In this document: piece by piece, positions 14,958 to 36,568 of the stretch
How positions within the stretch are numbered: the stretch's first letter is position 1
Layout of the letters: each line of letters starts with the position of its first letter
NCBI GenBank assembly: GCA_964418065.1
Contig: CAYQJR010000002.1
Coordinates: 1-37,728, forward strand
Length of the DNA: 37,728 nt
Source of the DNA: an uncultured Candidatus Saccharibacteria bacterium
Lineage (GTDB): Bacteria; Patescibacteriota; Minisyncoccia; Phycocordibacterales; Phycocordibacteraceae
Direction: 5' to 3'
Translations under genes and position numbers: made by a program
Notes under the pieces: generated by a model
Seen by the model: the letters and a program-made list of their open reading frames with translations, nothing else
Told to the model about the DNA's origin: nothing
The model's database searches: none

Positions 14958-15908
14958 ATGGATTCTGCTGACCTTCAGAAACTCGCTTATCGTACCCGCT
15001 CTATGCGCGAGACCGGCTTCGCGCTTCTCTTCGCCTCCGGCCTCCTTGCGTTACCGCTCCTCATCTCAACGTTCGTGGCGAAGCCTGCTCTACCCGAGCC
15101 CGCTGCGGCGATGGAACCGACAGCTCCCGATGCATTTGCAGCCGTCCACCTTGAAGCAAAGGCGGCGATTGTCTATGACCTCGCAACAGGAGAAACCCTG
15201 TATGCGCACAACGCCGACGCCCAGCTCCCGCTCGCTTCGCTTACGAAGCTTCTCACCGTTTACGCCGCGCTCCGCGAACTCTCGCCGACCACACCGATTA
15301 CGATTTCGCTCGCCGCGACGAAGCTTGAAGCGCCGCGGACCTTTAACGAGGGGCAGACCTTCTCGCTCGCTGACCTCGCTCGTCTCACACTCACGGCGTC
15401 GCTGAACGACGGCGCAGCCGCCATCATTGAAGCGGCGGCGGCACGCCAGAATCGCTCGCAAAACGAGACACTCGCCGCCGCCGCCGCCGCGCTTAATCTC
15501 TCCCAGACCTATGCGGTGAACGGCAGCGGGCTTGATATGAGCACGGAGGTTTCCGGCGGGTATGGTTCCGCCTACGACCTCGCGCGCCTTGCCGGCGCTC
15601 TCGTCGTTCTCTCTCCGGAGATTGCCGCCGCTACCACCCGGGCCTCCGCAGAGGCGGTGTCGGCGGGCGGTACCGCCTTCTCGGTAAAGAATACCGACCC
15701 GATGGTCGGCACTATTCCGCGCCTCCTGCTCTCAAAGACCGGTTACACTGATCTAGCGGGAGGCAATCTCGCAATCGTCTTTGACGCCGGTATCGGACAT
15801 CCTATTGCCGTCGTTGTTCTCGGCTCGTCGCAGAAAGAGCGCTTCACCGATGGTGCGGCGCTCATCGCCGCAGCGCTTGCGCACTTCGCCGGCGTCGCTT
15901 CGCTATGA
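14958..15908 (+). CDS. D-alanyl-D-alanine carboxypeptidase (S11, PBP5-like)
   Basis: N-terminal TM helix or signal. SxxK (SLTK), SxN (SLND) and KTG (KTGYT) motifs in canonical order and spacing. Confidence 0.8.
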   Translation: MDSADLQKLAYRTRSMRETGFALLFASGLLALPLLISTFVAKPALPEPAAAMEPTAPDAFAAVHLEAKAAIVYDLATGETLYAHNADAQLPLASLTKLLTVYAALRELSPTTPITISLAATKLEAPRTFNEGQTFSLADLARLTLTASLNDGAAAIIEAAAARQNRSQNETLAAAAAALNLSQTYAVNGSGLDMSTEVSGGYGSAYDLARLAGALVVLSPEIAAATTRASAEAVSAGGTAFSVKNTDPMVGTIPRLLLSKTGYTDLAGGNLAIVFDAGIGHPIAVVVLGSSQKERFTDGAALIAAALAHFAGVASL

Positions 15909-22417: not shown

Positions 22418-22450
22418 GCCCCAGATACTAGCACCCGCCTGAGCTCGTTG

Positions 22451-22456
22451 TATAAT
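22451..22456 (+). promoter_or_regulatory. Perfect TATAAT, 6 nt upstream of ATG 22463
   Basis: TTGTATAAT-GCGCCT-ATG. No SD in the gap. Confidence 0.45.
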
Positions 22457-22462
22457 GCGCCT

Positions 22463-22666
22463 ATGGCACTCGTATCGCTGCTGCGACTCCTGTTCTGGAT
22501 TGGCATCCTCTTCCTCGCCCTGTCATTCTTCGGCATCTCAATTCAGTCCATTGTCAATTCTCCCATTGGCCAAGCGAATCTCACCTATCTCTCCGACCTC
22601 GTTGCGCCGGTAGCGCAGTTCATCACCGAGCTCTGGCTCTCTGCAACCGAGTGGGTTCGTCCGTAG
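22463..22666 (+). CDS. Hypothetical small membrane protein (67 aa)
   Basis: ATG at 22463 (MALVSLLRLLFWIGILFLALSFFGI...). The track ORF starts at a TTG that overlaps the -10 box. Confidence 0.5.
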   Translation: MALVSLLRLLFWIGILFLALSFFGISIQSIVNSPIGQANLTYLSDLVAPVAQFITELWLSATEWVRP

Positions 22667-22692
22667 CATCCTCATTTGTCTCATAATCCTCT

Positions 22693-22893
22693 ATGGAAAG
22701 AATCCGAAGACATCTGGAAACAAGAAAAGCCTTTAATACAATGTCTCCTGAGCAGATTCGCTTGACCGAGAATAGAATAATGACCTTCGGTCTTGGCCCA
22801 GAGAACTTTGTAGAGAGCGAGGGCTATTCTGGGTATTCATTTGATGAAAAGAGAGAGAGGCCGCTGGTATCAAGGAAGCGTTGGCAACTCTAA
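22693..22893 (+). CDS. Hypothetical protein (66 aa), possibly the 5' part of a frameshifted gene
   Basis: ATG preceded by CATAAT, 5 nt upstream. Low GC. Overlaps the next ORF by 13 nt. A GAGAGAGAG run lies at 22851-22859. Confidence 0.4.
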   Translation: MERIRRHLETRKAFNTMSPEQIRLTENRIMTFGLGPENFVESEGYSGYSFDEKRERPLVSRKRWQL

Positions 22894-23267
22894 ATGATGT
22901 TGATTTGGAAGCACTGCTCGGCGAACTCCTTATGTACAAGACCTATCTCTCTTCTCAGGTTGGGAAATTGGCCGCGTTCGAGGGGAAGAAACCAACTCTC
23001 GAGAAAGATAATGTAGCTCACTTTGGCATTGCGCAAAGAGTTGGATTTCTTCAGAAAGCCATTGTTGAGGAGGAAAAGAAACGAAAGCTTGGGTTCTGGA
23101 AGGCTTTGTTATTGATGCCTAAAGCTCTGGAACGGACAAAAGAAATACGAAACGAGGTGGAGAGTGTGCGTCTAAGTAAAGAGATGGAGGATAAGGCGAG
23201 CCGGTTACTCGGAGATCAATACTTGGAAAATTCACTAGAAGCTGCGGATGATAATGATAAAAAATGA
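22881..23267 (+). CDS. Hypothetical protein (128 aa from TTG; first ATG at 22932)
   Basis: Lys/Glu-rich helical ORF in the low-GC island. The start is uncertain. No family recognised. Confidence 0.4.
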   Translation: MATLNDVDLEALLGELLMYKTYLSSQVGKLAAFEGKKPTLEKDNVAHFGIAQRVGFLQKAIVEEEKKRKLGFWKALLLMPKALERTKEIRNEVESVRLSKEMEDKASRLLGDQYLENSLEAADDNDKK

Positions 23268-23293
23268 AAAGAACCCTCCTCAAGGGTCCTTCG

Positions 23294-23446
23294 TTAAGCA
23301 CGATTTTCAGGAAGTGGTGAGCTCGGTGGTCTGAACTCGTGCTGTTCTGAACGGTCTTCTTGTGAAGCGTAGAAGTAGCGTGCCGGCGTGACTGTCCATA
23401 AGTTCACCGGCCCGAAGTAGAGTGCTGGCCAGATGTCCTTATTCAC
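23294..23446 (-). CDS. Hypothetical small protein (50 aa, below the track cutoff)
   Basis: Hand translation: GTG start with AAAGGA 6 nt upstream, giving (M)NKDIWPALYFGPVNLWTVTPARYFYASQEDRSEQHEFRPPSSPLPENRA. The stop is followed on the minus strand by an imperfect hairpin (GGACCCTT / AGGGTTCT, one mismatch) plus TTTTCATTTTTT. Confidence 0.3.
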   Translation of the reverse strand: MNKDIWPALYFGPVNLWTVTPARYFYASQEDRSEQHEFRPPSSPLPENRA

Positions 23447-23553
23447 GGTATTCCTTTCTCAACAGGTCCACCTCCGATTCTAAACCCTCCACGCCCAACA
23501 GGGTAGATGTTGATAAACTATACTTTCTACGCTACCTTAAAGTTAAGGAAGCA

Positions 23554-23685
23554 ATGATTTTGATTCTACCATTATTGATACTCGGAGCCATCATTGCGTG
23601 TTTTATGATTAACCTGTGGCTGGGTATTCTTGTGGTATGCGCAGCGGGTATTTGGCTAATCCTAGACTACTACCAACTTCTCTAG
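23554..23685 (+). CDS. Hypothetical two-helix hydrophobic peptide (43 aa)
   Basis: Internal ATG of the 87-aa track ORF, preceded by AAGGAA 4 nt upstream. Sequence: MILILPLLILGAIIACFMINLWLGILVVCAAGIWLILDYYQLL. Confidence 0.35.
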   Translation: MILILPLLILGAIIACFMINLWLGILVVCAAGIWLILDYYQLL

Positions 23686-23712
23686 ATCTAGGAAGGGAAG
23701 CTGCTACATCTT

Positions 23713-23874
23713 ATGGCAAACAATGAAAAAACATCAAAGAAAATAACAAGGTTGGCTGCGAAGCTCATGACCGTAACCAAGAAAGATCAGTTCACTCTCA
23801 AAGAGATGAAAAGTGTAATAGCCTCAGCTTTTACGCAAGCTCCCGACAGAAGGAGGAAGAAGGCAAGAGCTTAA
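23713..23874 (+). CDS. Hypothetical small basic protein (53 aa, below the track cutoff)
   Basis: Hand translation: MANNEKTSKKITRLAAKLMTVTKKDQFTLKEMKSVIASAFTQAPDRRRKKARA. Only a weak purine-rich stretch lies upstream. Confidence 0.25.
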   Translation: MANNEKTSKKITRLAAKLMTVTKKDQFTLKEMKSVIASAFTQAPDRRRKKARA

Positions 23875-23917
23875 ATAAGAAATCTCGGCTGACCGAGTTC
23901 CCGGCAGGGAAGAGAGG

Positions 23918-24373
23918 TTAAATCTTCGTTAACTCGAAGATATCTTTCCTCTTACGGAACTTGACGTCAAAGTACTCAAAAAAGCCTTTCTGGCCTAACA
24001 ACACAGGATACGGGAGTTTATCGGCAAATATTACTGGCACATTAAACACTTCGTCGAATCCCCCGAACTTTGCCTGCAGTGTATATGCAAAACCTATGGA
24101 GTCTGGAACACCGCCCAGTCTTTGTCCAACACCTCGTAAATATACTTTTCGGCACGTATTAGAGGATATAAACAATTCCTTAGCAATCTCTGAATCTATG
24201 AGGGTAGCGTCGGTACCTGAATCAATTAGGCCAACCAAATCTATAGTGGTGGCGGGAGCAATGAACTTTACATCGAGAAAAGGCCTAGGACTGTCAATCG
24301 TTCCACCCTCTAAAAAGAGGGATTGGCTGGTATATGAATACACCTTTGGCTCCATCGGCCAATTATAAGACAC
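23918..24373 (-). CDS. Retropepsin-like (clan AA) aspartic protease
   Basis: 151 aa from GTG 24373 (145 aa from ATG 24355). Contains VGLIDSGTDATLID with the D-S/T-G-T/A catalytic signature after a hydrophobic strand, and a later VLLGQKGFF (ILG-like) element. The single-lobe size fits a homodimeric retropepsin fold. Confidence 0.7.
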   Translation of the reverse strand: MSYNWPMEPKVYSYTSQSLFLEGGTIDSPRPFLDVKFIAPATTIDLVGLIDSGTDATLIDSEIAKELFISSNTCRKVYLRGVGQRLGGVPDSIGFAYTLQAKFGGFDEVFNVPVIFADKLPYPVLLGQKGFFEYFDVKFRKRKDIFELTKI

Positions 24374-24375
24374 TC

Positions 24376-24540
24376 TTAGAACGCGTACACCCTATCTGGG
24401 GAAAGTACTTTTGTATAAACAGCGTCCGTTTTACCTATCTGTTGTCGAAGAGAGGATAGATTGTCCGAAAGACCGAGTACCTTATTGTCTCTGGAGAGCG
24501 CAACCCATTTACCTTCGTTTTCCTTGCAGGAAACTTTCAT
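24376..24540 (-). CDS. Hypothetical 54-aa protein translationally coupled to the protease (DUF5678-like by recollection)
   Basis: Hand translation: MKVSCKENEGKWVALSRDNKVLGLSDNLSSLRQQIGKTDAVYTKVLSPDRVYAF. Its stop lies 2 nt before the protease GTG. TATAAT lies 9 nt upstream of its ATG. The GKWVA...KV pattern resembles small proteins I recall next to prokaryotic clan AA proteases. Confidence 0.45.
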   Translation of the reverse strand: MKVSCKENEGKWVALSRDNKVLGLSDNLSSLRQQIGKTDAVYTKVLSPDRVYAF

Positions 24541-24549
24541 AGACTGAAT

Positions 24550-24588
24550 ATTATAAATATATAGGACTGAAATACGAATGAGGTCCTA
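24550..24588 (-). promoter_or_regulatory. Promoter/operator candidate for the small-protein/protease pair
   Basis: Minus-strand TATAAT (plus coordinates 24550-24555), 9 nt from the ATG. Inverted repeat TAGGAC-N15-GTCCTA at 24562-24588, covering the -35 region. Confidence 0.4.
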
Positions 24589-24715
24589 AATGGGGATAAG
24601 ATGGAGTACTGGGCTCAATATACCAGCAAGCTCGTACCTTCTGTATTAGTGCGCAAAAGATATATTGTGCGTACTATAGCCACAGAGGTCCCCCACCGAG
24701 AGAGACTCCTAATAA

Positions 24716-25468
24716 TTAGCAAGAGACATTCTTGATGATGTACTCGTATGCCTCGTCAATTGAATCCACGAGCGTGTACAGCTTCATATCTGCCTTATCA
24801 ATAGCCGCGTACTTCTCATACAGCGTCTTTTCTATAAAACTCAGGAGCGGCTCCCAGTATCCCCGCCCGACAAGCACAATGGGCACAGCTCGCAGCTTCT
24901 TGGTCTGTACGAGCGTCACAATTTCAAAGAACTCGTCCAGAGTGCCAAATCCTCCTGGGAAGTAGACATACACCTCAGAGGCGTAGGTCAACATCACCTT
25001 GCGCACGAAGAAGTGATCAAAGACGAATTTCTCGGTGAGATAAGGATTGTAGTTCTGGGCTTCCGACAAGTTGATGTTGAGGCCGACTGATGCGCCGCCG
25101 GCATCAAATGCGCCCTTATTTGCCGCCTGCATGATACCGGCGCTACCGCCGGTGACAATGGCGAACCCTTTATGCGAGAGTCGGCGCGCGAGCTCTTCGG
25201 CACCCACATAGGAATCATCATGGAGCGTTGGGCGCGAACTGCCGAAGAAGCTGGCGGCAAGGCCGTAACGACGGATGACATCAAATCCCTCAATGAACTC
25301 CGACATTATCTTGAAAATGCGCCACGATTCTACCTTGCGAGGCTTACAGACAAGGAGCGGGCGGTCCTCGGGCTGGGTCCGTCCGCCTTCGTGAATGACT
25401 TTAGTGAGTTTCTCGGTAGATTCGTGGAGCACAGGGCGCGGTACATCGAGCGTAAGATTATCGTTCAT
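24716..25468 (-). CDS. LOG family protein (TIGR00730-type; cytokinin riboside 5'-monophosphate phosphoribohydrolase-like)
   Basis: 250 aa. VTGGSAGIM and PGGFGTLDE motifs typical of the LOG / lysine-decarboxylase-like family. Confidence 0.85.
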   Translation of the reverse strand: MNDNLTLDVPRPVLHESTEKLTKVIHEGGRTQPEDRPLLVCKPRKVESWRIFKIMSEFIEGFDVIRRYGLAASFFGSSRPTLHDDSYVGAEELARRLSHKGFAIVTGGSAGIMQAANKGAFDAGGASVGLNINLSEAQNYNPYLTEKFVFDHFFVRKVMLTYASEVYVYFPGGFGTLDEFFEIVTLVQTKKLRAVPIVLVGRGYWEPLLSFIEKTLYEKYAAIDKADMKLYTLVDSIDEAYEYIIKNVSC

Positions 25469-25491
25469 AGCGATGATTCTATTCTAACAGA

Positions 25492-25860
25492 CTAAAGTCC
25501 CTTGCAATTCACCGCCGGAGTATAACCGGCCGCCGCGGCGGCGGCGGCTGACGCGAACCACACTTTATTTGCAGCAGCTATCCTGTCCGCCCCGGCACAG
25601 TCCGGAAGATAATATTTCGTGCCATTCTTTGACGCCACAACTTGCCCTGCTTGCGGTGCGCCCGCCGAGTCGGCAAGCGGGAGTGCAGTGGGAGGCACTT
25701 CCAGCGCTATCTCACTCCCCTGCCCCATATCTTTCCCTGCGAGAAGCCCGAGCCCAAAGCTGGCTGAAGAAGCAGCCACAAGAATCAAAAGTATGGCGCC
25801 ATCCCGCGGGATTCTAGCGAGCAGAGCTTTGCATTTCTTGCGGACTTCTGCTATAGTCAT
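25492..25860 (-). CDS. Membrane-anchored protein with a C-terminal KYYLPDC...GYTP..C motif (Ada-like / sunset-type domain)
   Basis: 122 aa. One TM helix (ILLILVAASSASFGLGLLA) and a C-terminal GTKYYLPDCAGADRIAAANKVWFAS...AGYTPAVNC. Assignment is from memory of the motif. Confidence 0.5.
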   Translation of the reverse strand: MTIAEVRKKCKALLARIPRDGAILLILVAASSASFGLGLLAGKDMGQGSEIALEVPPTALPLADSAGAPQAGQVVASKNGTKYYLPDCAGADRIAAANKVWFASAAAAAAAGYTPAVNCKGL

Positions 25861-25879
25861 CAGGTAAAACTATACCACT

Positions 25880-26152
25880 ATGGCATCAACCAAGGCCGGA
25901 GGCTCAGCTAAAAACCTTAATACTTCCAACCCGAAATATCTCGGAGTTAAGCTCGCCGACGGCGATGCTGCCCGCCCCGGCATGGTGATTGTGCGGCAGC
26001 GCGGCACCAAGATTGAGGCCGGAAAGAATGTCCGCGTCGGCCGCGACCACACGCTCTTCTCCATCGCCACCGGCACCGTCAACTTCCGCACCCGCCGCAA
26101 GACCAGCTTCACCGGCCGCATAATGCAAAAGAAAGTCGTTGACGTCGTCTAA
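25880..26152 (+). CDS. rpmA: 50S ribosomal protein L27
   Basis: 90 aa. KAGGS, IVRQRGTK and GRDHTLF motifs. Confidence 0.93.
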   Translation: MASTKAGGSAKNLNTSNPKYLGVKLADGDAARPGMVIVRQRGTKIEAGKNVRVGRDHTLFSIATGTVNFRTRRKTSFTGRIMQKKVVDVV

Positions 26153-26667
26153 GCACTCGGTTTCTCAAAGTGTTGCCAGTCTTTTCTATCTCCCCAGTCA
26201 CCGCCCCATTTCCAGCCGTATGACTTGAAGACCCTGGCTATCTCGGCCGTGACTGTTCCTGGTTGAGCAGGGTCATAGCGGGCTCCCGCGGGCATGGTCG
26301 TCCCATCGCTAAGCACATATGGGTTCTGGAGAGGATTAATATCTATCGCTCGCCCGTAGGAGTGATTTGATAATCGGTTCGTATTGAAAATGATACGGTA
26401 GTTAAATGCCGAGGTGTTATTGTCCGCCATTGATGCGTCATCGTCCCAGCCATAGGCGGCAAGTGGAACCACCTGCTGGAGTGGAAACTGCATTTCAAAC
26501 AATTTATTAAAAATTTCTTGCACCTCTCCCGCAACTTCGCTGTGCACGACTATCTGCCCTTCGCGCACTTCCCTGTCAAAAGAGAAGAAAGAAATAGCTA
26601 CGAGCGTCAGGTTCTTCTTGATGTCTTCCGGAATCTCTTTCCCTGCGAGAGCCTCGTCAAGACTCAT
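26149..26667 (-). CDS. M15 family zinc metallopeptidase (D-Ala-D-Ala carboxypeptidase / cell-wall hydrolase type)
   Basis: SNHSYGRAIDIN (SxHxxGxAxD) and WGGDW...DWQHFE motifs. Start set at ATG 26667, 4 nt after the rplI stop. The longer track ORF overlaps rplI. Confidence 0.7.
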   Translation of the reverse strand: MSLDEALAGKEIPEDIKKNLTLVAISFFSFDREVREGQIVVHSEVAGEVQEIFNKLFEMQFPLQQVVPLAAYGWDDDASMADNNTSAFNYRIIFNTNRLSNHSYGRAIDINPLQNPYVLSDGTTMPAGARYDPAQPGTVTAEIARVFKSYGWKWGGDWGDRKDWQHFEKPSA

Positions 26668-26671
26668 GGCG

Positions 26672-27115
26672 CTACTCCGCCTCAATCGTGATTGAGAACT
26701 TCCCGAATACTTCGCCGGCAGAGACCGGAACCGCGAATACCCCAAGCTCCTTAAATGGTCTCTCAATCCGAATGGCGCCTATGGGAAGGTCTATGTGCGC
26801 CTGCTCCTTGATCGCCTTCAGGATATCAAGCTCATCCACGGCGTCGTAGAGGTGGCCTTTTCCGTTCGCTTTCATCTTAATCACGATGCGCGCCTCGGCG
26901 AGCGTCGCGATATTCTGCGCCACAAGCGCAACATCAAGGAGAGAACGGTCCAGTGCCTGTCTGCGGCGCATCTGCGCCTCCCCGAGAGCGGCTGCAGTCG
27001 CCGGAACCGCGAGTTTCCTGGGGATAAGGAAGTTCAGTGCGTACCCATCGGCGGTCAGTACGGTATCGTGCGCGCGGCCGACATTCTTCACATCTCGGGT
27101 CAAAATAACCTTCAT
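26672..27115 (-). CDS. rplI: 50S ribosomal protein L9
   Basis: 147 aa. MKVILTRDVKNVGR...DGYALNFLIPRKLA N-terminal signature. Confidence 0.9.
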   Translation of the reverse strand: MKVILTRDVKNVGRAHDTVLTADGYALNFLIPRKLAVPATAAALGEAQMRRRQALDRSLLDVALVAQNIATLAEARIVIKMKANGKGHLYDAVDELDILKAIKEQAHIDLPIGAIRIERPFKELGVFAVPVSAGEVFGKFSITIEAE

Positions 27116-27134
27116 ATCCAGCTAACGTACCTTA

Positions 27135-28379
27135 TTACCTACCGGTAGTCAAAAACTTGATGGCGCGTGCCACTTGAGAGTCATTTCCTTCGGGAGTGCT
27201 TGCCTTCTCGTACGCGACGATAATATCCGGCGTAATGCCGCTATCCATAATCCAGTGCCCTGCGGGCGTGACCCACCGCGCGACCGTGACCTTCAGCGAG
27301 CCCTTGCCGAGATCAATCAGCGTTTGCACCGAACCCTTGCCGAAGGACTGCGTGCCGATAATGGTTGCTACGCCCGCATCTTGGAGCGCACCGGCGAAAA
27401 TCTCGGAAGCGGATGCTGAACCGCCGTCGATAAGCACGACAATCTTAGCCCCTGCAGGAACATCGTTGTATCCGAGACTGGTATGCACGTTATCGGATTC
27501 ATTGTCGCCGAAGTCTTCGGTCACAATAGTTGTGCCTTTGGGGAGAAAATGGCTCGCAATATCAACTGCCGAATCCAGATAGCCGCCCGGGTTTGACCGC
27601 AAGTCAATCAGCAATTTCCTGGAGCCGGATGCTCTGAACCGTGCAAAGGCCTGATTAAAGAGGTCTGCGGAATTCGCAGTGAACTCGTAGAGCGCGATGC
27701 TATACACGCCCGTCTCCGCGTCAAGACCATCCTTAGTTTCAGGTATCTGAATCGTCGCACGGACAACCTCAATCTCAAGCACCTTCCCGTCGCGGATAAT
27801 GGTGAACTTGACGACGGTGCCGATATCCCCGCGAATCTGACTCACCGCTTTTTCGGTAGAAATGCCGTCCGTTGATTCCCCGTCAATAGTGGCGATAATG
27901 TCACCCGCCTTGATTCCTGCGGCCTCCGCCGGCGTGCCCTTCAGAGGCGCGATGACCGTCAACACGCTGTCTTTGACATCTATCTCCATACCGACGCCGG
28001 CAAAGCTCCCTGAAATGCTCTCGGCAAATGCCTTTGCCTCTTCCGGCGGGAAAAAGACGGTATACGGGTCTCCATAGGAGGATGCGAGGCCCTGAATGGC
28101 GCCAAAGAGACGCTCTTTGGCTGACGGGAGACTTGACGATGCGTGCGTAATCACGTAGTTCGCGTCAAGCGCGTTCCACGCTTTCCAGAAGTCGGTAAGG
28201 TCCACGCTCTGGTCGGGTGTTGCATCAAGACCATCGCCGACAAGCGGAATGTGCGAAACGATTGCGGAAGAAGAGCTGTTCCCGCCTATGGTGATTCCAA
28301 GACCAAACGCAATCGCCGCGACAAGCGCATATGAGACGCCGCGCACGACAATACCCCGTTTATGGTAATCAAATTGCAT
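27135..28379 (-). CDS. ctpA: Carboxy-terminal processing peptidase (S41)
   Basis: TM anchor, PDZ segment (GIKAGDIIATIDGES), catalytic region GGSASASEIFAGALQD and later FGKGSVQ. Start set at ATG 28379. Confidence 0.9.
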   Translation of the reverse strand: MQFDYHKRGIVVRGVSYALVAAIAFGLGITIGGNSSSSAIVSHIPLVGDGLDATPDQSVDLTDFWKAWNALDANYVITHASSSLPSAKERLFGAIQGLASSYGDPYTVFFPPEEAKAFAESISGSFAGVGMEIDVKDSVLTVIAPLKGTPAEAAGIKAGDIIATIDGESTDGISTEKAVSQIRGDIGTVVKFTIIRDGKVLEIEVVRATIQIPETKDGLDAETGVYSIALYEFTANSADLFNQAFARFRASGSRKLLIDLRSNPGGYLDSAVDIASHFLPKGTTIVTEDFGDNESDNVHTSLGYNDVPAGAKIVVLIDGGSASASEIFAGALQDAGVATIIGTQSFGKGSVQTLIDLGKGSLKVTVARWVTPAGHWIMDSGITPDIIVAYEKASTPEGNDSQVARAIKFLTTGR

Positions 28380-28427
28380 GTTCCCGAAGTGTACCACGGA
28401 CGAAATAACCCATGGTATTCTAGAGTG

Positions 28428-29345
28428 ATGATATTTCGGCACCACTACCGAGGCGGCGTGTGGGTTGACCTTGAACAGCCGACCGAAGATGAAATCCGCC
28501 AGATTACTAGAGAGTTTTCAATTAGTACGCGCATTGAGAAAGAAATTCTCACCCCGACGCCGATGCCGCTCGTCATCAATGATACGGACGCAACGCTCCT
28601 CGTTCTCCATTTCCCGGCTCCCGGCAATAAAGACGGCGACACCGGCAGCCAAGAGGTGGACTTCGTTGTCGGCAGCCGCTACATCGTAACCGCCCGCTAC
28701 GAGGTAGTCGCGCCCCTCTACCACCTGAAGAAGCTTCTTGAAACCCAAGGGCTCGTCGGCGGACGAGATTCGGTCACAACCGAGGTTCTGCTCGAGGTAT
28801 TGTTCGCGCATCTCTATACCGCCGTGCGCAACCATACCAATCATGTTGCGAGCCGCCTTGAACGCATTGAGAAGGACATGTTTGAGGGAAAAGAGCAGGC
28901 GACCGTGCGTTCTATTTCAAACATCAGCCGCTCATTTCTCCATATGGAAAGTGTGCTTGCAAATCAGCAGGAAACCCTGAAACGCTTCCTTGAGACCCTT
29001 GGCCACGCGTCCTTCTTCGGTCCGTCCTTCGCCGAGCGGACACTCCGCATCCTTACCGAACGCACGCATGTCGCACACTTGGTCACCACGCACCGGGCGA
29101 TTGCGGCAGAGTTGCGCGAGACGAACAATGCCCTTCTGTCGGCAAAACAGAATGAAATCATCAAAATTCTGACGGTGGTCAGTTTCATCTTCTTGCCGCT
29201 CGCTCTCATTGCAAAAGTCTTTGCTATGAAAGTCGCACATATGCCGTTCGTTGATGACCCGAACGGGTTCTGGATTATCCTCGGCATTATGTTCGCCGTC
29301 GCGGTGGTATTGACACTCTTTGTGTCCAAGAAACGCTGGCTTTGA
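28428..29345 (+). CDS. CorA-family divalent cation transporter homolog with a non-canonical AMK pore motif
   Basis: CorA-like architecture: a soluble N domain and two C-terminal TM helices ending KKRWL. The segment IAKVFAMKVAHMP aligns to IAGIYGMNFEYMP of canonical CorA. Start set at ATG 28428 (TATTCT box 6 nt upstream). Confidence 0.75.
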   Translation: MIFRHHYRGGVWVDLEQPTEDEIRQITREFSISTRIEKEILTPTPMPLVINDTDATLLVLHFPAPGNKDGDTGSQEVDFVVGSRYIVTARYEVVAPLYHLKKLLETQGLVGGRDSVTTEVLLEVLFAHLYTAVRNHTNHVASRLERIEKDMFEGKEQATVRSISNISRSFLHMESVLANQQETLKRFLETLGHASFFGPSFAERTLRILTERTHVAHLVTTHRAIAAELRETNNALLSAKQNEIIKILTVVSFIFLPLALIAKVFAMKVAHMPFVDDPNGFWIILGIMFAVAVVLTLFVSKKRWL

Positions 29346-30808
29346 TGGGTATGGACCTCTGGAGACGACTTTTCGGAACACGCAAGAATGAATCGGCTCG
29401 TCCTCCGTCCGTCTTTTTCACCAATACCCTCTCGGGCGCTAAGGAACTTTTCGTATCACTGCGTCCCGGCATCGCGCTGATGTATAGTTGCGGGCCGACG
29501 GTCTACGGCCAGCAGCATATCGGCAATTTGCGGGCGGCCATCTTCTCAGACACCCTTGCCCGAGTGCTCAAGGCCGCGCACTATCACCTGCGGCGAGTGA
29601 CCAATATCACTGACGTGGGCCATCTCGTCGACGACAGCGATGGTGGAGAGGATAAGATGGCAGTCGGCGCAAAGCGCGATAAGACAACGCCTGAGGAGGT
29701 CGCCGACCGTTACACCAAGATATATATTGAAGATTTGACGGACCTCAATGTTGATACCGACGATATCCGATTCCCCCGCGCAACGGCGTATATCAAAGAA
29801 CAAATAGCGCTCGCGAAGACGCTGGAGGAAAAAGGGTTCGCGTATTATCTCCCAGACGGCCTGTACTTCGATACGCAGAAGTTCCCTCAGTATGGACGCC
29901 TCGGCAAAATGTCTCGGGTACAACTTGAGGCGGGTAAGCGTGTCGAAGTGGTCAGGGGGAAACACAATCCCGCCGACTTCGTCCTCTGGCGGAGCGCAAA
30001 GGCAAACGACCTCCAGCAGTGGGATAGTCCGTGGGGACGCGGCAACCCTGGCTGGCATATTGAATGTTCGGCAATGGCTCGTTCGCTCTTGGGTCTTGAA
30101 ATAGATATCCATACGGGCGGAGAGGAGCACGTCTCAATTCACCACAACAATGAAATCGCCCAGTCAGAAGCGGCGAGCGGTCGAACCTTCGTCCGTTACT
30201 GGATGCACAACGCCCACCTCACTCTGCAAGGAGAGAAGTTGGCGAAATCTACAGGCAACGCAGTTTATCTTTCTGATGTGATACAAAAGGGATTTAATCC
30301 GCTCTCGCTCCGCTACTTTTTCCTCCAAGCGCACTATCGCACCCCCCTCTCCTTCTCATGGGATGCGCTTGCCGGCGCTGCCGAAGCGCTGAACCGGCTC
30401 TGGCGCCTTTCTAAAGAAGTTGCGCACGAATCAAAGGGAAAGAGTAATCCTTCAGAAGCACGTACGCGGTTCCTTGCAGCGGTTCGTGACGACCTTGCGA
30501 CGCCGCAGGCGCTTGGCATCCTCTGGGAGACCTTGCGGAGCGAAGACTACACGCCCGAGGAGAAATGGGGACTGATTGAAAGTGCTGAGGAACACTTCGG
30601 CCTCTCGCTCACCGCGCCGCCGAACACCGGGGCGCTTGCCGAGTCTGATATCCCGAAAGATATACAGGAACTGCTTGCATCGCGAGAAATAGCTCGTATT
30701 TCCAAGGATTTTTCGGAGGCCGATCGTATTCGCGGCGAGATTGAGAAGGGTGGATATCGTGTGGACGACGGGCCAAATGGCCCTGTATTAACGCGGAGGA
30801 CTCTTTGA
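29345..30808 (+). CDS. cysS: Cysteinyl-tRNA synthetase
   Basis: MYSCGPTVY..QHIGN (HIGH), HTGGEEH..HHNNEIAQSEA, and KLAKSTGN (KMSKS variant). The start is ambiguous (TTG 29342, ATG 29345, ATG 29351) and overlaps the corA-like stop. Confidence 0.92.
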   Translation: MGMDLWRRLFGTRKNESARPPSVFFTNTLSGAKELFVSLRPGIALMYSCGPTVYGQQHIGNLRAAIFSDTLARVLKAAHYHLRRVTNITDVGHLVDDSDGGEDKMAVGAKRDKTTPEEVADRYTKIYIEDLTDLNVDTDDIRFPRATAYIKEQIALAKTLEEKGFAYYLPDGLYFDTQKFPQYGRLGKMSRVQLEAGKRVEVVRGKHNPADFVLWRSAKANDLQQWDSPWGRGNPGWHIECSAMARSLLGLEIDIHTGGEEHVSIHHNNEIAQSEAASGRTFVRYWMHNAHLTLQGEKLAKSTGNAVYLSDVIQKGFNPLSLRYFFLQAHYRTPLSFSWDALAGAAEALNRLWRLSKEVAHESKGKSNPSEARTRFLAAVRDDLATPQALGILWETLRSEDYTPEEKWGLIESAEEHFGLSLTAPPNTGALAESDIPKDIQELLASREIARISKDFSEADRIRGEIEKGGYRVDDGPNGPVLTRRTL

Positions 30809-30814
30809 TACAAT
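30806..30814 (+). promoter_or_regulatory. Extended -10 box TGaTACAAT, 7 nt upstream of the dnaB ATG
   Basis: TGATACAAT-CGGGGCA-ATG, overlapping the cysS stop codon. Confidence 0.4.
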
Positions 30815-30821
30815 CGGGGCA

Positions 30822-32189
30822 ATGGCTACCGCTAGCGACCGAAGCAGAGTCCCGCCCCAGTCTCTGGAATCCGAGCGAGCGCTCCTTGGCGCTCTTCTGC
30901 TGAAGCCCGACGCTATTCACGATGTGTCGGACCTTATTCATGCTGAGTCCTTCTACGCCGAGAAGCACCGCACTATATTCGGAGCGATGCGAGAACTCGC
31001 CGACCGCGGCGAGCCGATTGACCAGCTCTCGCTCTCTGCGCGCCTCCAAGATCAGGGGCTTCTCGAGCGCGCCGGCAGCCGCAGTTATCTCGCGGAGCTC
31101 GCGGGCTCGGCTCCCGCGCCCGGAAACTTCTCTCACTACGCAGAGCTCGTCTCGCGCAAGTCTCTCATGCGCTCGCTCATTGATGCCGCCTACGGAATCA
31201 GCGAATCCGCGTACGACGAAGCGCGCGAGACGATGGAGGTGCTGGACGAGGCCGAGAAGAGCATCTACGCGATCGGAAACGCTTCCGCGGCGCACAAGTT
31301 CACCGCCATCGGGGACAAGCTCCATGCCGCATGGGAGCGCATTGAAGCGCTGTCTCATAAGCAGGATGGTATCCGCGGAGTCCCCTCCGGCTTCCCTTCT
31401 CTGGACAACCTGCTCTCGGGCTTCCACACTTCCGACTTGGTGATTATCGCCGCGCGCCCCTCGATTGGTAAGACTTCGCTTGCGCTTGATATCGCGCGTA
31501 ACGCCGCGGTGCGCCACAACGTCCCCGTCGGTATCTTCTCGCTTGAGATGAGTTCTGAGCAGATTATTGACCGCATGCTCTCGGCAGAATCATTTGTGAA
31601 TTCGTGGAAGTTGCGTACCGGACAAGTGAAGGAGGAAGAGGACTTCGGCCGCATCCGCGACGCGCTTGAGGTCCTCTCCAAGGCTCCTATTTATATTGAC
31701 GACAAGCCGGGCAATAATATCCTCTCGATGCGCGCGGTGGCCCGCCGGCTTAAGCGCGAGCGCGGTATCGGGCTTATCATCGTGGATTACCTGCAACTGA
31801 TGTCGCCGACAACGACGAAAGCGTCTGACTCTATGGTCCAGCAGATTACCGAAATCTCGCGCTCGCTCAAGAATCTCGCCCGCGAGCTGGAGGTACCGGT
31901 CATTGCGCTCTCCCAGCTCTCGCGTGCGGTGGAACAGCGCGGCGGGAAGCCGCGCCTCTCTGACCTGCGCGACTCGGGCTCTATTGAACAGGATGCGGAC
32001 GTCGTGATGTTCATCCACCGCGACGACAAAGTAAACAAGGAGAGCGAGCGGCCGGGCATCGCCGAAATCCTGATAGAGAAGCACAGGAACGGCCCCACCG
32101 GCAAGATAGAACTCTACTTTGACGATAAGCGCACGACCTTCCAGCCGGTGGACACCACCGGCTACGGCGAACTCGCGGCTGAATTCTAA
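30822..32189 (+). CDS. dnaB: Replicative DNA helicase DnaB
   Basis: 455 aa. PPQSLESERALLGALL N-terminus, Walker A (ARPSIGKTS), IVDYLQLM, and the SQLSRAVEQR / DLRDSGSIEQDAD motifs. Confidence 0.95.
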   Translation: MATASDRSRVPPQSLESERALLGALLLKPDAIHDVSDLIHAESFYAEKHRTIFGAMRELADRGEPIDQLSLSARLQDQGLLERAGSRSYLAELAGSAPAPGNFSHYAELVSRKSLMRSLIDAAYGISESAYDEARETMEVLDEAEKSIYAIGNASAAHKFTAIGDKLHAAWERIEALSHKQDGIRGVPSGFPSLDNLLSGFHTSDLVIIAARPSIGKTSLALDIARNAAVRHNVPVGIFSLEMSSEQIIDRMLSAESFVNSWKLRTGQVKEEEDFGRIRDALEVLSKAPIYIDDKPGNNILSMRAVARRLKRERGIGLIIVDYLQLMSPTTTKASDSMVQQITEISRSLKNLARELEVPVIALSQLSRAVEQRGGKPRLSDLRDSGSIEQDADVVMFIHRDDKVNKESERPGIAEILIEKHRNGPTGKIELYFDDKRTTFQPVDTTGYGELAAEF

Positions 32190-32219
32190 AATGAAGAAAG
32201 TAGAGGCAGTCTGAATGGT

Positions 32220-32822
32220 ATGGACAAGATTGACGAACTCGCACAGGCGCTCGCTCGGCTTCCCGGTATCGGACCGCGCCAGGGCAAGCGCTTCGTCTTC
32301 TACCTTCTCGCTGCGCCTGCCGCAGAACGCTCGAAACTCGGCGAGCTTATCGCCGCGCTCGGCAAAGAGATCCGGCAGTGCTTCGACTGTCTGCGCTTTT
32401 ATAACGGCATTACTGCAAGCACCTGCGGCTACTGTTCTGACACAAGACGCGACGATTCCCTCCTGATGCTTGTTGAGAAGGACCAGGACCTCACGGCTGT
32501 GGAGCGCGCGGGGACCTATCGTGGACGCTATTTCGTGCTCGGCGGCGTACTTACCCTCTCGGGTAAGGGCGCTATTCGGGAAAAGGAATTGGTAAAGATA
32601 GTTGAGAAGCGCCTTAAGGGCGGATTGAAGGAAATTGTGCTTGCGCTCTCTGCGACGAGCGAAGGAGAACATACTGCTGACCGCGTGCGCGCGCTCCTCG
32701 CGCCATACCGTGAGCGAGTGATGACCTCAATACTTGGACGCGGTCTCGCTACCGGCAGCGAGCTAGAGTATTCCGACGCCGAGACGCTTCGTGCCGCCCT
32801 CACCAACCGTAAAGAAACTTAA
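32220..32822 (+). CDS. recR: Recombination protein RecR
   Basis: 200 aa. LPGIGPRQGKR HhH motif, C4 zinc finger (CFDC...CGYC) and a Toprim segment. Confidence 0.93.
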   Translation: MDKIDELAQALARLPGIGPRQGKRFVFYLLAAPAAERSKLGELIAALGKEIRQCFDCLRFYNGITASTCGYCSDTRRDDSLLMLVEKDQDLTAVERAGTYRGRYFVLGGVLTLSGKGAIREKELVKIVEKRLKGGLKEIVLALSATSEGEHTADRVRALLAPYRERVMTSILGRGLATGSELEYSDAETLRAALTNRKET

Positions 32823-32863
32823 GTAGTGATGTAACTCGGGGCGAAAACAAGCGTCTGTAGTGT

Positions 32864-33235
32864 ATGGGACGCGTTTTGTTAATCCTCTTCTTCATACTCA
32901 TTGCCGGCTACGGACTTGATTTTCTGTTCACCTACAACCAGCGTCTCGCTATTGAGGCTTCCGAGCAAGACGCATCAGCCGATGAGGCAGTGGCGGACGC
33001 AAGTCCTCAAAATTTTAACGAAACGGGAACACTCGTATTCTATCCAAACAATGTCGGCCCCGTACCGTACCTCTTCTACCGAGATGCGAAGGGGCGGGTG
33101 GTGTCCAAGGCGCTCGTGTTCCCCTCCCCCGCTTCAGTTGGCGGCTCGTGGAGCGGCTCGCGCATCTCGGTCACGGGGGATCTTGTTTTTGAGCATGTGG
33201 TGGTTGCTCGCGCAACCTACATCTCGGGACCTTAA
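32864..33235 (+). CDS. Hypothetical membrane-anchored/secreted protein
   Basis: 123 aa with an N-terminal hydrophobic helix. No family recognised. Confidence 0.5.
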   Translation: MGRVLLILFFILIAGYGLDFLFTYNQRLAIEASEQDASADEAVADASPQNFNETGTLVFYPNNVGPVPYLFYRDAKGRVVSKALVFPSPASVGGSWSGSRISVTGDLVFEHVVVARATYISGP

Positions 33236-33360
33236 AGCAGTTTGATGATGAGTACGATGAGTGCGATGACGAGCAGGGTATGAATCAGATTGCCTCCTAT
33301 ATGAAAATTGTACCCGAGAAGCCAGAGGATGACTAGAACTACGATGAGTGTTTCCAACAT
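33232..33360 (-). CDS. Small membrane protein (42 aa), lmo0937-like
   Basis: Hand translation: MLETLIVVLVILWLLGYNFHIGGNLIHTLLVIALIVLIIKLL. The WLLG...GG.LIH.LLVIA pattern matches the small two-helix family as I recall it. AGGAGA lies within the end of the upstream gene. Confidence 0.5.
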   Translation of the reverse strand: MLETLIVVLVILWLLGYNFHIGGNLIHTLLVIALIVLIIKLL

Positions 33361-33366
33361 ACAGGA

Positions 33367-33723
33367 TTATTTCTCCTGATCCTCCAGTTTAACCGCGGCT
33401 TCAGGAGTTGAGACCGTCTTGCCCATGAGGAAGAGGCGGACGATACCGAGAGCGAGCACCCAATACACGAACATCGCGAGAAGCGTTGTCCACTCGAAGA
33501 CGCTTCCTTCTACGTAGGTTGCGTTGAAGACGTTCACGAACGGCGCCGCAAACGGATATGTCACCGAATAAATAAAATTGGTGAATCCGGCGCTCGGATT
33601 CGCCGCAAGGAGTTTCAGAACGAGGCGGAATGCAAGCAGCACCTCTACGAGACCAAGTACATACCAGACTATCTGCGTGCCCCGATACAAAGGCTTCGTA
33701 GTCGGCGAGGTATGGGAGTCCAT
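33367..33723 (-). CDS. YggT family membrane protein
   Basis: Start set at ATG 33723 (118 aa). QIVWYVLGLVEVLLAFRLVLKLL plus a second helix pair, typical YggT topology. Confidence 0.65.
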   Translation of the reverse strand: MDSHTSPTTKPLYRGTQIVWYVLGLVEVLLAFRLVLKLLAANPSAGFTNFIYSVTYPFAAPFVNVFNATYVEGSVFEWTTLLAMFVYWVLALGIVRLFLMGKTVSTPEAAVKLEDQEK

Positions 33724-33755
33724 ATAGCCTTTATGCCGTACGTCGAGCAAGCTGA

Positions 33756-34142
33756 TTACACGTGTGATTTCGCGCGCTTCACGGTGGCTTTCGCGTGCGC
33801 AACGCTCTTCTTCACCGTTCTCTTCGTTTCTTTCTGCACCTTGTCCCAATTTGACTTCAACTCGCGTGCTGCACGTCGCACTTCTTGCGTATCTATGGAA
33901 CGGACTCCCTCGTAGGTCTTCGCCACGCCGTCCACAATTGCGGCAAATGCTTTGGGGCTTGCCTTTGAAAGATGCCTGCTTTCCTTAATTACTTCATTTT
34001 TCATATTGATTGCCCATTTTGCGGCAATCTTGCGGCGCTTCTTTGCATTATCACTACCGTAGAAATAATAGCCGGCAGCTGCGCTCGCGGCGATGATTCC
34101 TGCGCCAATCCCCACTGCGGTCTTCTTAGTACTTTTGTTCAT
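33756..34142 (-). CDS. YtxH-like membrane-anchored protein
   Basis: 128 aa. N-terminal Gly/Ala-rich helix (AVGIGAGIIAASAAAGYYF), then a Lys-rich helical region. Confidence 0.5.
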   Translation of the reverse strand: MNKSTKKTAVGIGAGIIAASAAAGYYFYGSDNAKKRRKIAAKWAINMKNEVIKESRHLSKASPKAFAAIVDGVAKTYEGVRSIDTQEVRRAARELKSNWDKVQKETKRTVKKSVAHAKATVKRAKSHV

Positions 34143-34178
34143 AGTATATATTCTTGAATTACAGAAATTGAATAAAAA

Positions 34179-36509: not shown

Positions 36510-36525
36510 TCGGTCTGTTGGACAA

Positions 36526-36558: not shown

Positions 36559-36568
36559 CTTAGTATTC

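Follow-up and report, generated by a model that had tools for sequence, protein, structure and literature searches.

Single-domain proteases of the retropepsin-like type are known from prokaryotes, among them the COG3577/COG5550 'pSNCAPs' (PMC2642776). The dif site, in turn, comprises 28 bp with two 11-bp arms around a 6-bp centre and imperfect dyad symmetry (PMC5357621), and one published criterion for its recognition requires that positions 7-12 and 17-22 form more than four complementary pairs (PMC3025954). Integrase-less elements (IMEX) and dif-adjacent islands are exemplified by CTXphi/VGJphi/TLCphi, the Neisseria GGI and Legionella LME-1 (PMC5357621, PMC9765430).

In the window, i.e., the whole 37.7-kb stretch of DNA that was analysed, we identified an island of ~1.98 kb (22667-24647), which we consider fairly likely to be a lineage-restricted accessory patch of Candidatus Kaiserbacteria (CPR) situated beside a likely Xer/dif site. 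Like IMEX, it is integrase-less, foreign-looking DNA lying against a site that is presumably of the dif type, and inovirus-like genes are found at such a site in another contig (L198). Unlike IMEX, it possesses neither a second dif-like site (attL/attR) nor phage replication or morphogenesis genes. Of the features that define a classical genomic island, the unusual composition and the presence/absence polymorphism are found here; an integrase, a tRNA target and direct repeats are not.

Composition, extent and relatives of the island

The segment 22667-24715 has a GC content of 44.1%, compared with 56.2% in the left flank (1-22666) and 53.9% in the right flank (24716-37728). Only ~1% of all 2049-nt segments of the window are as low in GC, and these coincide either with the island or with another low-GC stretch around 33.7-36 kb. 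The same holds for third codon positions, with a GC3 of 43-53% in the island ORFs vs 63-74% in tm72, LOG, HhH-GPD, M23 and L27. An earlier note on this DNA had described a low-GC island of tiny orphan ORFs based on spot counts of 60-nt lines. These counts are exact (30% for 23521-23580, 35% for 24121-24180 and 66.7% for 15001-15060), and the windowed GC analysis that the note proposed confirmed the island; the 67% line chosen for comparison, however, is an extreme, the true background being 53.9-56.2%. All ORFs named in the note are present at the sizes given. The features of the region are as follows:

22448-22666, + strand: tm72, small membrane protein, left flank; conserved member of the core synteny block
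22693-23267, + strand: broken orphan gene (66-aa and 128-aa ORFs) with a frameshift and an intact homologue
23268-23292: terminator-like hairpin between the orphan gene (+) and the 50-aa gene (-), from a terminator scan
23294-23446, - strand: 50-aa gene with GTG start, AAGGA Shine-Dalgarno sequence and an orthologue in contig L082
23447-23553: putative divergent promoter region of the 50-aa gene and the 43-aa ORF, based on conservation and a sigma-70-like site
23554-23685, + strand: very hydrophobic 43-aa candidate ORF, MILILPLLILGAIIACFMINLWLGILVVCAAGIWLILDYYQLL, with AAGGA 5 nt upstream
23713-23874, + strand: 53-aa basic protein, putative divergent phrog_5079 member (E 0.005)
23884-23897: short GC hairpin between the convergent 53-aa and protease genes, from a terminator scan
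23918-24373, - strand: 151-aa ORF, predicted retropepsin-like (clan AA) single-domain aspartic protease, based on family, fold and motif
24376-24540, - strand: 54-aa DUF5678-like partner, first gene of a two-gene operon, conserved upstream of the protease
24648-24675, - strand: dif-like site AGTACGCACAA-TATATC-TTTTGCGCACT (28 nt), conserved right border
24716-25468, - strand: LOG-family (lysine-decarboxylase-like) core gene, right flank (Pfam PF03641, E 3.5e-30)

The left border of the island directly after the tm72 ORF agrees with the earlier note. The right border does not, as 24648-24715 before LOG is conserved in relatives; these last ~65 nt do not belong to the insert, which therefore spans ~22667-24647. 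Instead of a single cassette of orphan ORFs, as previously suggested, the island appears to be composed, mosaic-like, of four small transcription units with two hairpin terminators between them: (1) the orphan gene, into whose (AG)5 tract an AG would have been inserted recently, inactivating it, (2) the conserved 50-aa gene, (3) the hydrophobic 43-aa ORF and the phage-type (phrog_5079-like) 53-aa protein, and (4) a predicted operon of the DUF5678-like 54-aa protein and the retropepsin-like aspartic protease. Orphan status was lost for the 151-, 54- and 53-aa products, which fall in recognisable families.

The island interrupts a core synteny block with the order L27 - ArfC-like - LOG - [gap] - tm72 - HhH-GPD - M23, exactly where the genes of a + strand block (2.4-21.8 kb) and those of a - strand block (24.7-28.4 kb) run towards each other. 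In tblastn searches, tm72 was found in ~20 Kaiserbacteria/Parcubacteria loci, always beside HhH-GPD or M23. In the closest relative, L002, tm72 is 80.6% and LOG 92% identical, and the synteny of LOG is kept in all relatives. The LOG-to-tm72 gap measures 2049 bp here, 351 bp in L002 (including a 13-N run), 82-191 bp in L032, L004, L013 and L007, and 0.97-3.6 kb in L006, L010, L014 and L017, where it is filled by unrelated genes. We searched all these relatives for the island ORFs and found none; altogether, ~17 syntenic relatives with LOG identities of 55-92% lack every island gene. The alignment to related genomes that the earlier note recommended thus revealed an island missing from the closest and most other relatives, with other cargo in some of them. 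The tm72-LOG interval is probably a hot spot of gene gain and loss between two convergent core genes.

As the earlier note stated, there is no integrase, tRNA or flanking repeat. The nearest tRNA lies at 9421-9505, Rfam families had no match inside the island, direct and inverted repeats at the island were restricted to chance-level matches of 10-25 nt, and no tyrosine recombinase gene was detected in the whole window. Because these elements are missing, and in view of the foreign composition and the absence from the closest syntenic relative, the suggestion of a non-canonical acquisition is reasonable. The island DNA was probably acquired horizontally, and part of it may have come from phage-like sources.

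The retropepsin-like protease and its small partner

The 151-aa ORF likely starts at an ATG at 24355 (MEPKVYSY..., 145 aa). Its family comprises 290 representative clusters (50% identity) at E<=1e-3, all of ~140 aa. Among 41 family members, D and G of the motif D51-S52-G53 do not vary and S shows at least 90% conservation; complete or near-complete conservation is also seen at G81, G127/Q128 (LLGQ motif) and F131/F132. Pfam Asp_protease_2 was matched by 39 of the 41 members (E<0.01; best 4.9e-9); the window protease itself reached 17 bits against Asp_protease_2/gag-asp_proteas, at a gathering score of 24.3. Searching the PDB with the family profile returned the Ddi1 RVP domains (E 5e-5). The single-chain AF2 model (pLDDT 93, pTM 0.85) had as its best Foldseek match the Rickettsia protease APRc (5c9f/5c9b, E 8e-5), followed by Ddi1 RVP and the HIV/EIAV/HTLV proteases, with a probability of 1.0. 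The predicted model establishes a retropepsin-type fold with an intact catalytic D-S-G. The protein thus resembles the APRc/ApRick-type proteases in its single retropepsin-type domain of ~140 aa, the catalytic D-S-G, the LLG motif and the predicted fold, but it is only ~15% identical to APRc, lacks the membrane anchor and, unlike APRc, is always (7/7) preceded by a DUF5678-like partner.

This partner is the 54-aa protein, whose gene has a TATAAT box 9 nt upstream of the ATG and no Shine-Dalgarno sequence. It is 41-52% identical to 60-69-aa products encoded upstream of protease homologues, and protease and small partner were paired at all seven homologous loci examined, with a spacing of 1-22 nt. 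The match to Pfam DUF5678 is below threshold (17.8 bits, gathering 23.2; E 0.003), as it is for four of the five small-partner family members (best E 0.0014). Single-sequence modelling predicted a beta-beta-beta-alpha core and, at low confidence, the conserved C-terminal tail (...VY.KVL..D..YAF-COOH); a fold search with this model returned nothing significant. No toxin-antitoxin or DNA-binding family in Pfam, NCBIfam or PADLOC matched the small partner.

The PADLOC analysis advised by the earlier note identified the protease as a match to component B of candidate defence systems. It matched PDC-M52B with E 2.2e-4 over positions 19-135 of 139, and 32 of the 41 family members matched PDC-M52B and 29 PDC-M08B (best 1e-10). 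Unlike in PDC-M52/PDC-M08, the small protein and four homologues matched no PADLOC model at E<=1, so no component A was found next to B. To our knowledge, PDC-M52 and PDC-M08 are candidates without published validation. Neither papers on these systems nor toxicity, inhibition or defence data for the protease family were found in the literature searched.

The pair shares with type II toxin-antitoxin systems the tandem arrangement of two small genes, separated by 1-22 nt and led by the smaller one, and a scattered, position-variable occurrence between housekeeping genes, here in foreign-looking DNA. It differs from them in that no known family is matched, the candidate toxin is a protease and the small protein has no DNA-binding domain. 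The proposal of an addiction- or defence-type cassette in the earlier note is supported for the architecture of this pair and its protease (PDC-M52B/PDC-M08B) and not supported for the other ORFs, which match no known family of this kind. Judged from these similarities, a toxin-antitoxin or defence function of the pair may be inferred. In such a two-component addiction or abortive-infection module, the small upstream protein would bind the dimeric protease and keep it inactive, with the conserved and probably flexible ...YAF tail as a candidate plug of the active site, and the protease would be released once the small protein is lost or displaced.

A possible, if somewhat unlikely, reading is that the protease, like other bacterial retropepsin-like enzymes, has housekeeping or regulatory tasks and that the small protein is its dedicated adaptor, chaperone or substrate. 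In other genomes the pair occurs singly among mostly housekeeping genes of CPR-like contigs (once beside MazG-like and DpnI genes), and its GC there roughly follows that of the host, which is compatible with long-term residence. Also, APRc as the closest solved structure is no toxin, the small protein matches no antitoxin-type DNA-binding family, and the PDC models are candidates only. On the other hand, the pair is missing from the closest relatives and hence not essential here, its GC is atypical here, and its scattered, single-copy, position-variable distribution combined with tight gene coupling, as well as its resemblance to PADLOC candidates derived from defence islands, points toward the toxin-antitoxin or defence function.

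The dif-like site at the right border

The 28-nt site beside LOG shows the layout 11-6-11 with an imperfect dyad and occurs once in the window. In 25 relatives, the LOG..tm72 interval contains its 20-nt core (<=3 mismatches) exactly once, always oriented the same way. Across the resulting 26 sites, one per locus, the inner arms CGCACAA/TTTTGCG and the centre vary by at most 1-3 bases, and the outer arm bases vary. With the E. coli dif sequence as printed in PMC3025954, 18-20 of the 28 positions are identical (P ~1e-5 to 3e-7, fixed register). A position weight matrix built from the 26 sites identified this one site in the 37.7 kb (score 44.1) and no other scoring >=5, with none at the other edge of the island. 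The lack of a second site there, even a degenerate one, counts against Xer-mediated insertion, which is only a candidate mechanism. The earlier note had missed the site, which offers an integrase-free route of acquisition.

As in dif/Xer sites (E. coli dif; XerS/difSL-type modules), the 11-6-11 sequence is non-coding, lies between convergent genes and has an adjoining Xer-type gene in some relatives: in L010 and L006, an XerC/D-type recombinase gene was located at a distance of 24-35 nt from a variant site, and in L115 such a gene lies near a perfect one. These genes scored 224/222 bits over the full length of TIGR02224/02225, at cut-offs of 335/330. In contrast to E. coli dif with six of six, only four of the six inner pairs are complementary (by inspection), so the site falls short of the pairing criterion of PMC3025954; additional pairing at 5-6/23-24 lies outside this rule. 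The skew switch also does not appear to coincide with the site. In most relatives, GC skew keeps its sign within +-10 kb, and the cumulative-skew maximum of the window is at 14 kb, ~10 kb away; gene orientation converges at 21.8-24.7 kb. We found no report of a dif site in Patescibacteria in the literature searched. From conservation and layout, the 28-nt sequence is probably a chromosomal Xer/dif site. Host Xer recombination at dif may then have been the entry route of the island, which would explain the missing integrase, tRNA and repeats.

Taken further, this route leads to the idea that the whole island is the eroded remnant of one integrase-less element (IMEX or prophage), which entered by Xer at dif and subsequently lost its distal dif and replication genes. 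We regard this as unlikely. It is in line with the position of the island directly against the dif-like site, the missing integrase, tRNA and repeats, the phage-type small genes inside the island and the precedents (PMC5357621, PMC9765430). Furthermore, Zot-encoding inovirus-like genes adjoin a perfect site in L198, and the IMG/VR contig L093 carries a homologue of the 53-aa protein and a near-site 1.4 kb apart in matching relative orientation, although L093 bears its own integrase fragment. There is, however, no second dif-like site in the window and no phage structural or replication gene in the island, and the four units differ in their distribution, the pair being widespread in CPR and the orphan gene known from L082 alone.

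Genomes are tiny in CPR/Patescibacteria, and little is known about accessory functions and the biology of mobile elements in these bacteria. In the boldest reading, which is doubtful, the pair would be an uncharacterised, CPR-widespread protease toxin-antitoxin or abortive-infection system with the YAF tail plugging the active site, and the island would have been captured by Xer at an undescribed Parcubacteria dif that also serves as the attachment site of Zot-encoding filamentous CPR phages. If true, this would provide a testable two-gene module (~290 clusters at 50% identity) in which a protease of the retropepsin type, i.e., with the fold known from retroviral proteases, is the effector in a toxin-antitoxin or defence-like role. 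Kaiserbacteria and Parcubacteria would also have a candidate site for resolving chromosome dimers, which could mark the terminus in fragmentary MAGs and a predictable hot spot of accessory DNA, and there would be a first hint of Xer/dif integration by inovirus-like elements in CPR hosts. If the conservative part alone holds, the patch amounts to a small accessory islet of an ordinary kind.

The orphan gene and the small ORFs of the left part

The 66-aa and 128-aa ORFs, which the earlier note had counted as separate genes, are two halves of one frameshifted gene. Deleting the extra AG in the (AG)5 tract at 22850-22859 restores a 190-aa ORF, whose product is 72% identical over its full length to the intact 216-aa homologue P0003 on the ENA contig L082. 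The codon differences between both genes are 20 synonymous/7 nonsynonymous in the N-terminal part and 42/38 in the C-terminal part. The Logan assembly L001 carries the identical frameshift. Searches against Pfam, PHROG and PDB gave no match. The following hairpin combines an 11-bp stem with a T-run and has a counterpart at the equivalent place in L082.

The 50-aa gene on the opposite strand was absent from all gene-caller output and protein databases checked. Its 51-aa orthologue in L082 is 72% identical, with a shared stop, in-frame indels and synonymous changes. The N-terminal motif WP..YFGPVNLWT.P exists also in 56-69-aa ORFs on three IMG/VR contigs. Upstream of this gene, 23447-23489 is unusually conserved (38 of 43 nt as in L082), and a sigma-70-like site is located at 23546-23517 on the - strand.

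The 53-aa protein is 48% identical to gp148 of Caulobacter phage CcrBL9 (tblastn E 5e-4; pairwise E 3e-12) and 50% identical to a 46-aa ORF on L093. Since these two match phrog_5079 at 1.7e-6 and 1.6e-8, respectively, we assign it by similarity as a divergent member of this phage small-protein family. The GC hairpin behind it is likely a bidirectional terminator.

L082, a Kaiserbacteria-like contig, contains at least ~800 bp of the left part of the island at the same position beside tm72, with 68-72% amino-acid identity and purifying selection; it stops before the 43-aa ORF, which limits the comparison to the left part. This part of the island is therefore not unique to the present genome. As the left part is in position in L082 despite a tm72 identity of 67%, vs 81% for L002, ancestral presence followed by repeated loss is possible. 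On this basis, the entire region could be ancestral and vertically inherited, with low GC due to relaxed selection and AT-biased mutation and with loss in the relatives; the decay of the orphan gene and the AT-rich short intergenic gaps at the locus in relatives would fit. We consider this quite unlikely, given the ~17 syntenic relatives devoid of island genes, a GC3 that lies 15-30 points under that of core genes even where purifying selection acts on the island genes, two units with phage relatives, and the occurrence of the protease pair at unrelated loci in other genomes. The atypical composition and the patchy presence are observed directly.

That most small ORFs arose by chance in non-coding AT-rich DNA is highly improbable: although the 43-aa ORF has no homologue and gene callers skipped the 50-, 53- and 54-aa ORFs, in-frame conservation with synonymous changes in the orphan and 50-aa genes and homologues of the 53-, 54- and 151-aa proteins ruled it out for every ORF but the 43-aa one. 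These comparisons establish the orphan gene, the 50-aa gene, the 53-aa gene and the 54-aa/protease operon as coding. The earlier note had considered that the small ORFs might lack any conservation and be non-coding; conservation or homologues were found for all except the 43-aa ORF. The latter showed no family match either, and was called as a gene on a Logan contig.

Composition and setting of the island

The stretch at 22667–24715, between the core genes tm72 (left) and LOG (right), has a GC content of 44.1%, compared with 56.2% on its left and 53.9% on its right. This is the fair comparison for the spot counts of the earlier note (30%, 35% and 66.7%), which were exact. The windowed calculation proposed there placed the island among the lowest ~1% of windows of its length, the rest of these lying in a second low-GC stretch. 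The GC content at third codon positions is 43–53% in the island ORFs vs 63–74% in the adjoining core genes. The last 65 nt ahead of LOG are shared with relatives. As the earlier note had stated, no integrase, tRNA or flanking repeat accompanies the island: scans for tRNAs and for Rfam families (at gathering thresholds and at E ≤ 1) gave no match inside it, and its surroundings are likewise free of tRNAs, Rfam families and integrases, the repeat search yielding chance-level matches only. NCBIfam had no match for any island ORF. The sole tRNA of the window is a tRNA-Tyr at 9421–9505.

The second low-GC stretch (about 33200–36000, 41–46% GC) is as extreme as the island and contains, besides other small ORFs:

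34448–34963, minus strand, 171-aa ORF, ECF-type sigma-70-like
34179–34448, minus strand, 89-aa ORF just upstream of the 171-aa ORF
35135–35749, plus strand, 204-aa ORF

The window comes from an uncultured Candidatus Kaiserbacteria (Parcubacteria, CPR). Its LOG protein shares 92% identity with the one of Kaiserbacteria RIFCSPLOWO2_01_FULL_55_19 (L002, the closest relative), and its DNA recurs in the Logan assembly of SRR6868922 (L001), where 15.4 kb align with a single mismatch. The gene order L27 – ArfC-like – LOG – gap – tm72 – HhH-GPD – M23 is kept in about 20 related loci. LOG and tm72 are convergent, and the length of the gap between them varies widely.

Length of the LOG–tm72 gap in the window and in related loci
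Window: 2049 bp
L002: 351 bp, with a run of 13 N inside the gap
L032, L004, L013, L007: 82–191 bp
L006, L010, L014, L017: 0.97–3.6 kb, with unrelated genes

The cargo of the last four includes a Xer-type recombinase, ATP-grasp and methyltransferase-like genes, and an 84-aa gene. The comparison with relatives that the earlier note had called for thus found different cargo in some syntenic loci and the island ORFs in none of them (tblastn). Given this absence from loci with such variable gaps, the LOG–tm72 interval is a hot spot where genes are gained and lost, the island being one lineage-restricted filling of it.

Small genes and a protease pair

The ORFs of 66 and 128 aa at the left end of the island, listed separately in the earlier note, turned out to be one broken gene. 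An intact 216-aa homologue (P0003), encoded on a 1056-bp ENA contig (L082), covers both, and once the (AG)5 tract at 22850–22859 is shortened by one AG, a 190-aa ORF results that has 72% identity to P0003 over the full length. Because synonymous changes dominate (synonymous to nonsynonymous 20:7 in the N-terminal part and 42:38 in the C-terminal part), this orphan gene was under selection until recently. The Logan assembly carries the same frameshift. The +2 shift in the (AG)5 tract that splits the gene, identical in two assemblies, may be a slip that inactivated the gene and became fixed, or may reflect a phase-variable tract. Programmed −1 frameshifting at GAA-AAG was rejected, as P0003 lacks a shift site and neither a canonical slippery heptamer nor a stimulator is present. 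Neither Pfam nor PDB offered a family or structure for the orphan gene, and scans of metagenomes with the repaired gene and of viruses with P0003 returned nothing.

Contig L082 is syntenic, with the 3′ end of tm72 followed by the orphan-gene homologue, a hairpin and the next gene, so that the ~800 bp on the island's left side are common to another Kaiserbacteria-like organism; its tm72 is 67% identical to that of the window, vs 81% for L002. The next gene in the window is:

23294–23446, minus strand, 50-aa gene; its 51-aa orthologue on L082 has the same stop, in-frame indels and synonymous changes

This ORF is a real gene. In its 5′ untranslated or promoter region (23447–23489), 38 of 43 nt are identical to L082, above the level of the neighbouring coding DNA, which suggests a regulatory element. 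Its N-terminal motif WP..YFGPVNLWT.P also opens ORFs of 56–69 aa on three IMG/VR contigs, a link that is suggestive only, since the motif itself served as the search seed. A word-index homology search and a metagenome scan with the 50-aa gene gave no match.

The 53-aa ORF is 48–50% identical to gp148 of Caulobacter phage CcrBL9 and to a 46-aa ORF on an IMG/VR contig (L093). Both of these match phrog_5079 (1e-6 to 1e-8), and the 53-aa ORF is a divergent member. On L093, which carries the homologue at 3001–3141, there are also a tyrosine-integrase fragment (70–579) and, 1.4 kb downstream of the homologue and in window-like relative orientation, a near-match to the dif-like site described below (4551–4570, centre TATCTT). 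A putative hydrophobic ORF of 43 aa is preceded by a Shine-Dalgarno sequence and was called as a gene on the Logan assembly; no homologue of it was found. Hairpins at 23268–23292 and 23884–23897 separate the convergent units.

The 151-aa ORF belongs to a family of 290 clusters (50% identity; exhaustive HMMER search at E ≤ 1e-3), nearly all of about 140 aa. In the alignment D-S-G is invariant, a motif LLGQ..FF is conserved, and the start consensus M.W..Y.Y points to the ATG at 24355 as the true start. Pfam Asp_protease_2 was matched by 39 of 41 family members, the PDB matches of the family profile were Ddi1 retroviral-protease-like domains, and the AF2 model (pLDDT 93) was closest to Rickettsia APRc, followed by Ddi1 and retroviral proteases. 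Alignment, profiles and model together indicate an intact retropepsin-like aspartic protease, a group of which 'little is known' in prokaryotes (PMC2642776). A word-index homology search returned only the window's own sequence, and tblastn found the protease in neither plasmids nor phages.

In all seven homologous loci examined (within L083–L091), a gene of 60–69 aa lies 1–22 nt upstream of the protease gene on the same strand. The 54-aa protein of the window is 41–52% identical to the aligned partners (n = 5 of the seven loci). The partner family matches DUF5678 below threshold. A partly confident single-sequence model has a beta-beta-beta-alpha core and, after it, a C-terminal tail (...YAF) that is conserved but modelled with low confidence. 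A fold search with this model was uninformative, and a viral scan with the DUF5678-like family found nothing. The protease family matches the PADLOC candidate models PDC-M52B and PDC-M08B; the protease is the sole island match in PADLOC, the partner having none.

The pair thus resembles a toxin–antitoxin layout whose effector would be a retropepsin-type protease, akin to PADLOC candidates that are themselves unvalidated. From this anatomy we tentatively infer a two-component, addiction- or abortive-infection-like module, in which the small protein would control, and probably inhibit, the protease. A serious rival, only slightly less likely, is that the protease is non-toxic and the small protein its dedicated regulator or adaptor. 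Elsewhere the neighbours of the pair are mostly housekeeping CPR genes, with MazG-like and DpnI genes instead at one locus. Literature searches for DUF5678, PDC-M52, PDC-M08 and retropepsins with toxin–antitoxin systems found no relevant paper.

A candidate dif site at the right border

The conserved 65 nt before LOG hold a core, CGCACAATATATCTTTTGCG, that has no second copy in the window. This core is found exactly once per locus, with orientation and interval unchanged, in 25 related loci in which LOG is only 55–92% identical. Four further bases at either end complete the following site:

24648–24675, minus strand, dif-like site AGTACGCACAA TATATC TTTTGCGCACT, 11-6-11 with imperfect dyad symmetry

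In these 26 Parcubacteria loci (one copy each in the window, L002–L032 and L058), conservation covers the inner arms and the centre, while the outer bases vary. An 11-6-11 arm–centre–arm arrangement is the architecture of dif sites (PMC5357621), and 18–20 of the 28 positions are identical to Escherichia coli dif, GGTGCGCATAATGTATATTATGTTAAAT (sequence from PMC3025954). Inner pairing, at 4 of 6 positions, falls short of the 'more than four' rule (PMC3025954). Full-length XerC/D-type recombinase genes lie 24–35 nt from a variant site in the related loci L010 (8426–9439) and L006 (3070–4090), and a tyrosine recombinase gene (3340–4755) is near a perfect dif-like site on an IMG/VR contig (L115), a layout resembling the xerS–difSL arrangement (PMC5357621). 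The XerC/D-type genes of all three adjoin the dif-like site or its right-arm variant TAAAACGAAGT; the one in L006 is split into ORFs of 229 and 76 aa. In the window, genes almost all on the plus strand (2.4–21.8 kb) converge at the site on a minus-strand block (24.7–28.4 kb). Cumulative GC skew peaks at ~14 kb, 10 kb from the site, and a skew flip at the site within ±10 kb was absent in most loci. The strand and skew pattern of the window is terminus-like. Taken together, the 28-nt motif is probably the Xer/dif site of these CPR bacteria. It is apparently undescribed, and no paper on dif or Xer in Patescibacteria was found.

Another IMG/VR contig, L198, has a perfect dif-like site (270–297) directly followed by inovirus-like genes (785–5168), one of which encodes a Zot (pI-type) ATPase (Pfam, 28 bits). 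Such a layout is the classic one for an IMEX, and L198 may represent a filamentous phage that infects a CPR host and integrates through Xer. Its first ORF was considered as a tm72 orthologue and rejected, similarity being undetectable.

Four relatives have, after the site, a second copy that is inverted and imperfect, with a centre ~6–7 nt longer; the window lacks this second copy:

L002, 10376–10470, dif-like site and inverted second copy
L003, 11043–11130, likewise
L008, 3538–3630, likewise
L015, 10947–11040, likewise

The two copies covary between genomes (TTTTACG/CGTAAAA vs TTTTGCG/CGCAAAA) and could form a long hairpin. The conserved 20-mer itself was rejected as a simple RNA hairpin or terminator, since its outer 'stem' bases lack consistent covariation and its 12-nt 'loop' is invariant.

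Origin of the island

The island can be described, with putative functions, as a small accessory islet, as the carrier of a toxin–antitoxin-like pair with a retropepsin-type effector, and as a dif-adjacent insertion; what merits further work is the protease pair, together with the candidate CPR dif site. An integrase-free insertion beside dif invites a Xer-mediated, IMEX-like route of entry, for which precedents exist (PMC5357621, PMC9765430). That the island is the remnant of one such element is nevertheless improbable: not even a weak second dif-like site bounds its other edge, and its four units have unrelated distributions. For the same reasons we prefer stepwise accretion, in which small foreign pieces would have been added one after another at the dif-adjacent hot spot. 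Ancestral DNA with multiple losses in relatives is less probable still. Of the earlier note's reading, an old or non-canonical acquisition and possibly a defence- or addiction-type cassette, the foreign-looking, non-canonical DNA and one unit shaped like such a module remain, but the island is a mosaic. Cargo occupies the interval between LOG and the dif-like site in L014, L008, L009, L011, L015 and L058, and that between the site and tm72 in the window, L015 and L017.
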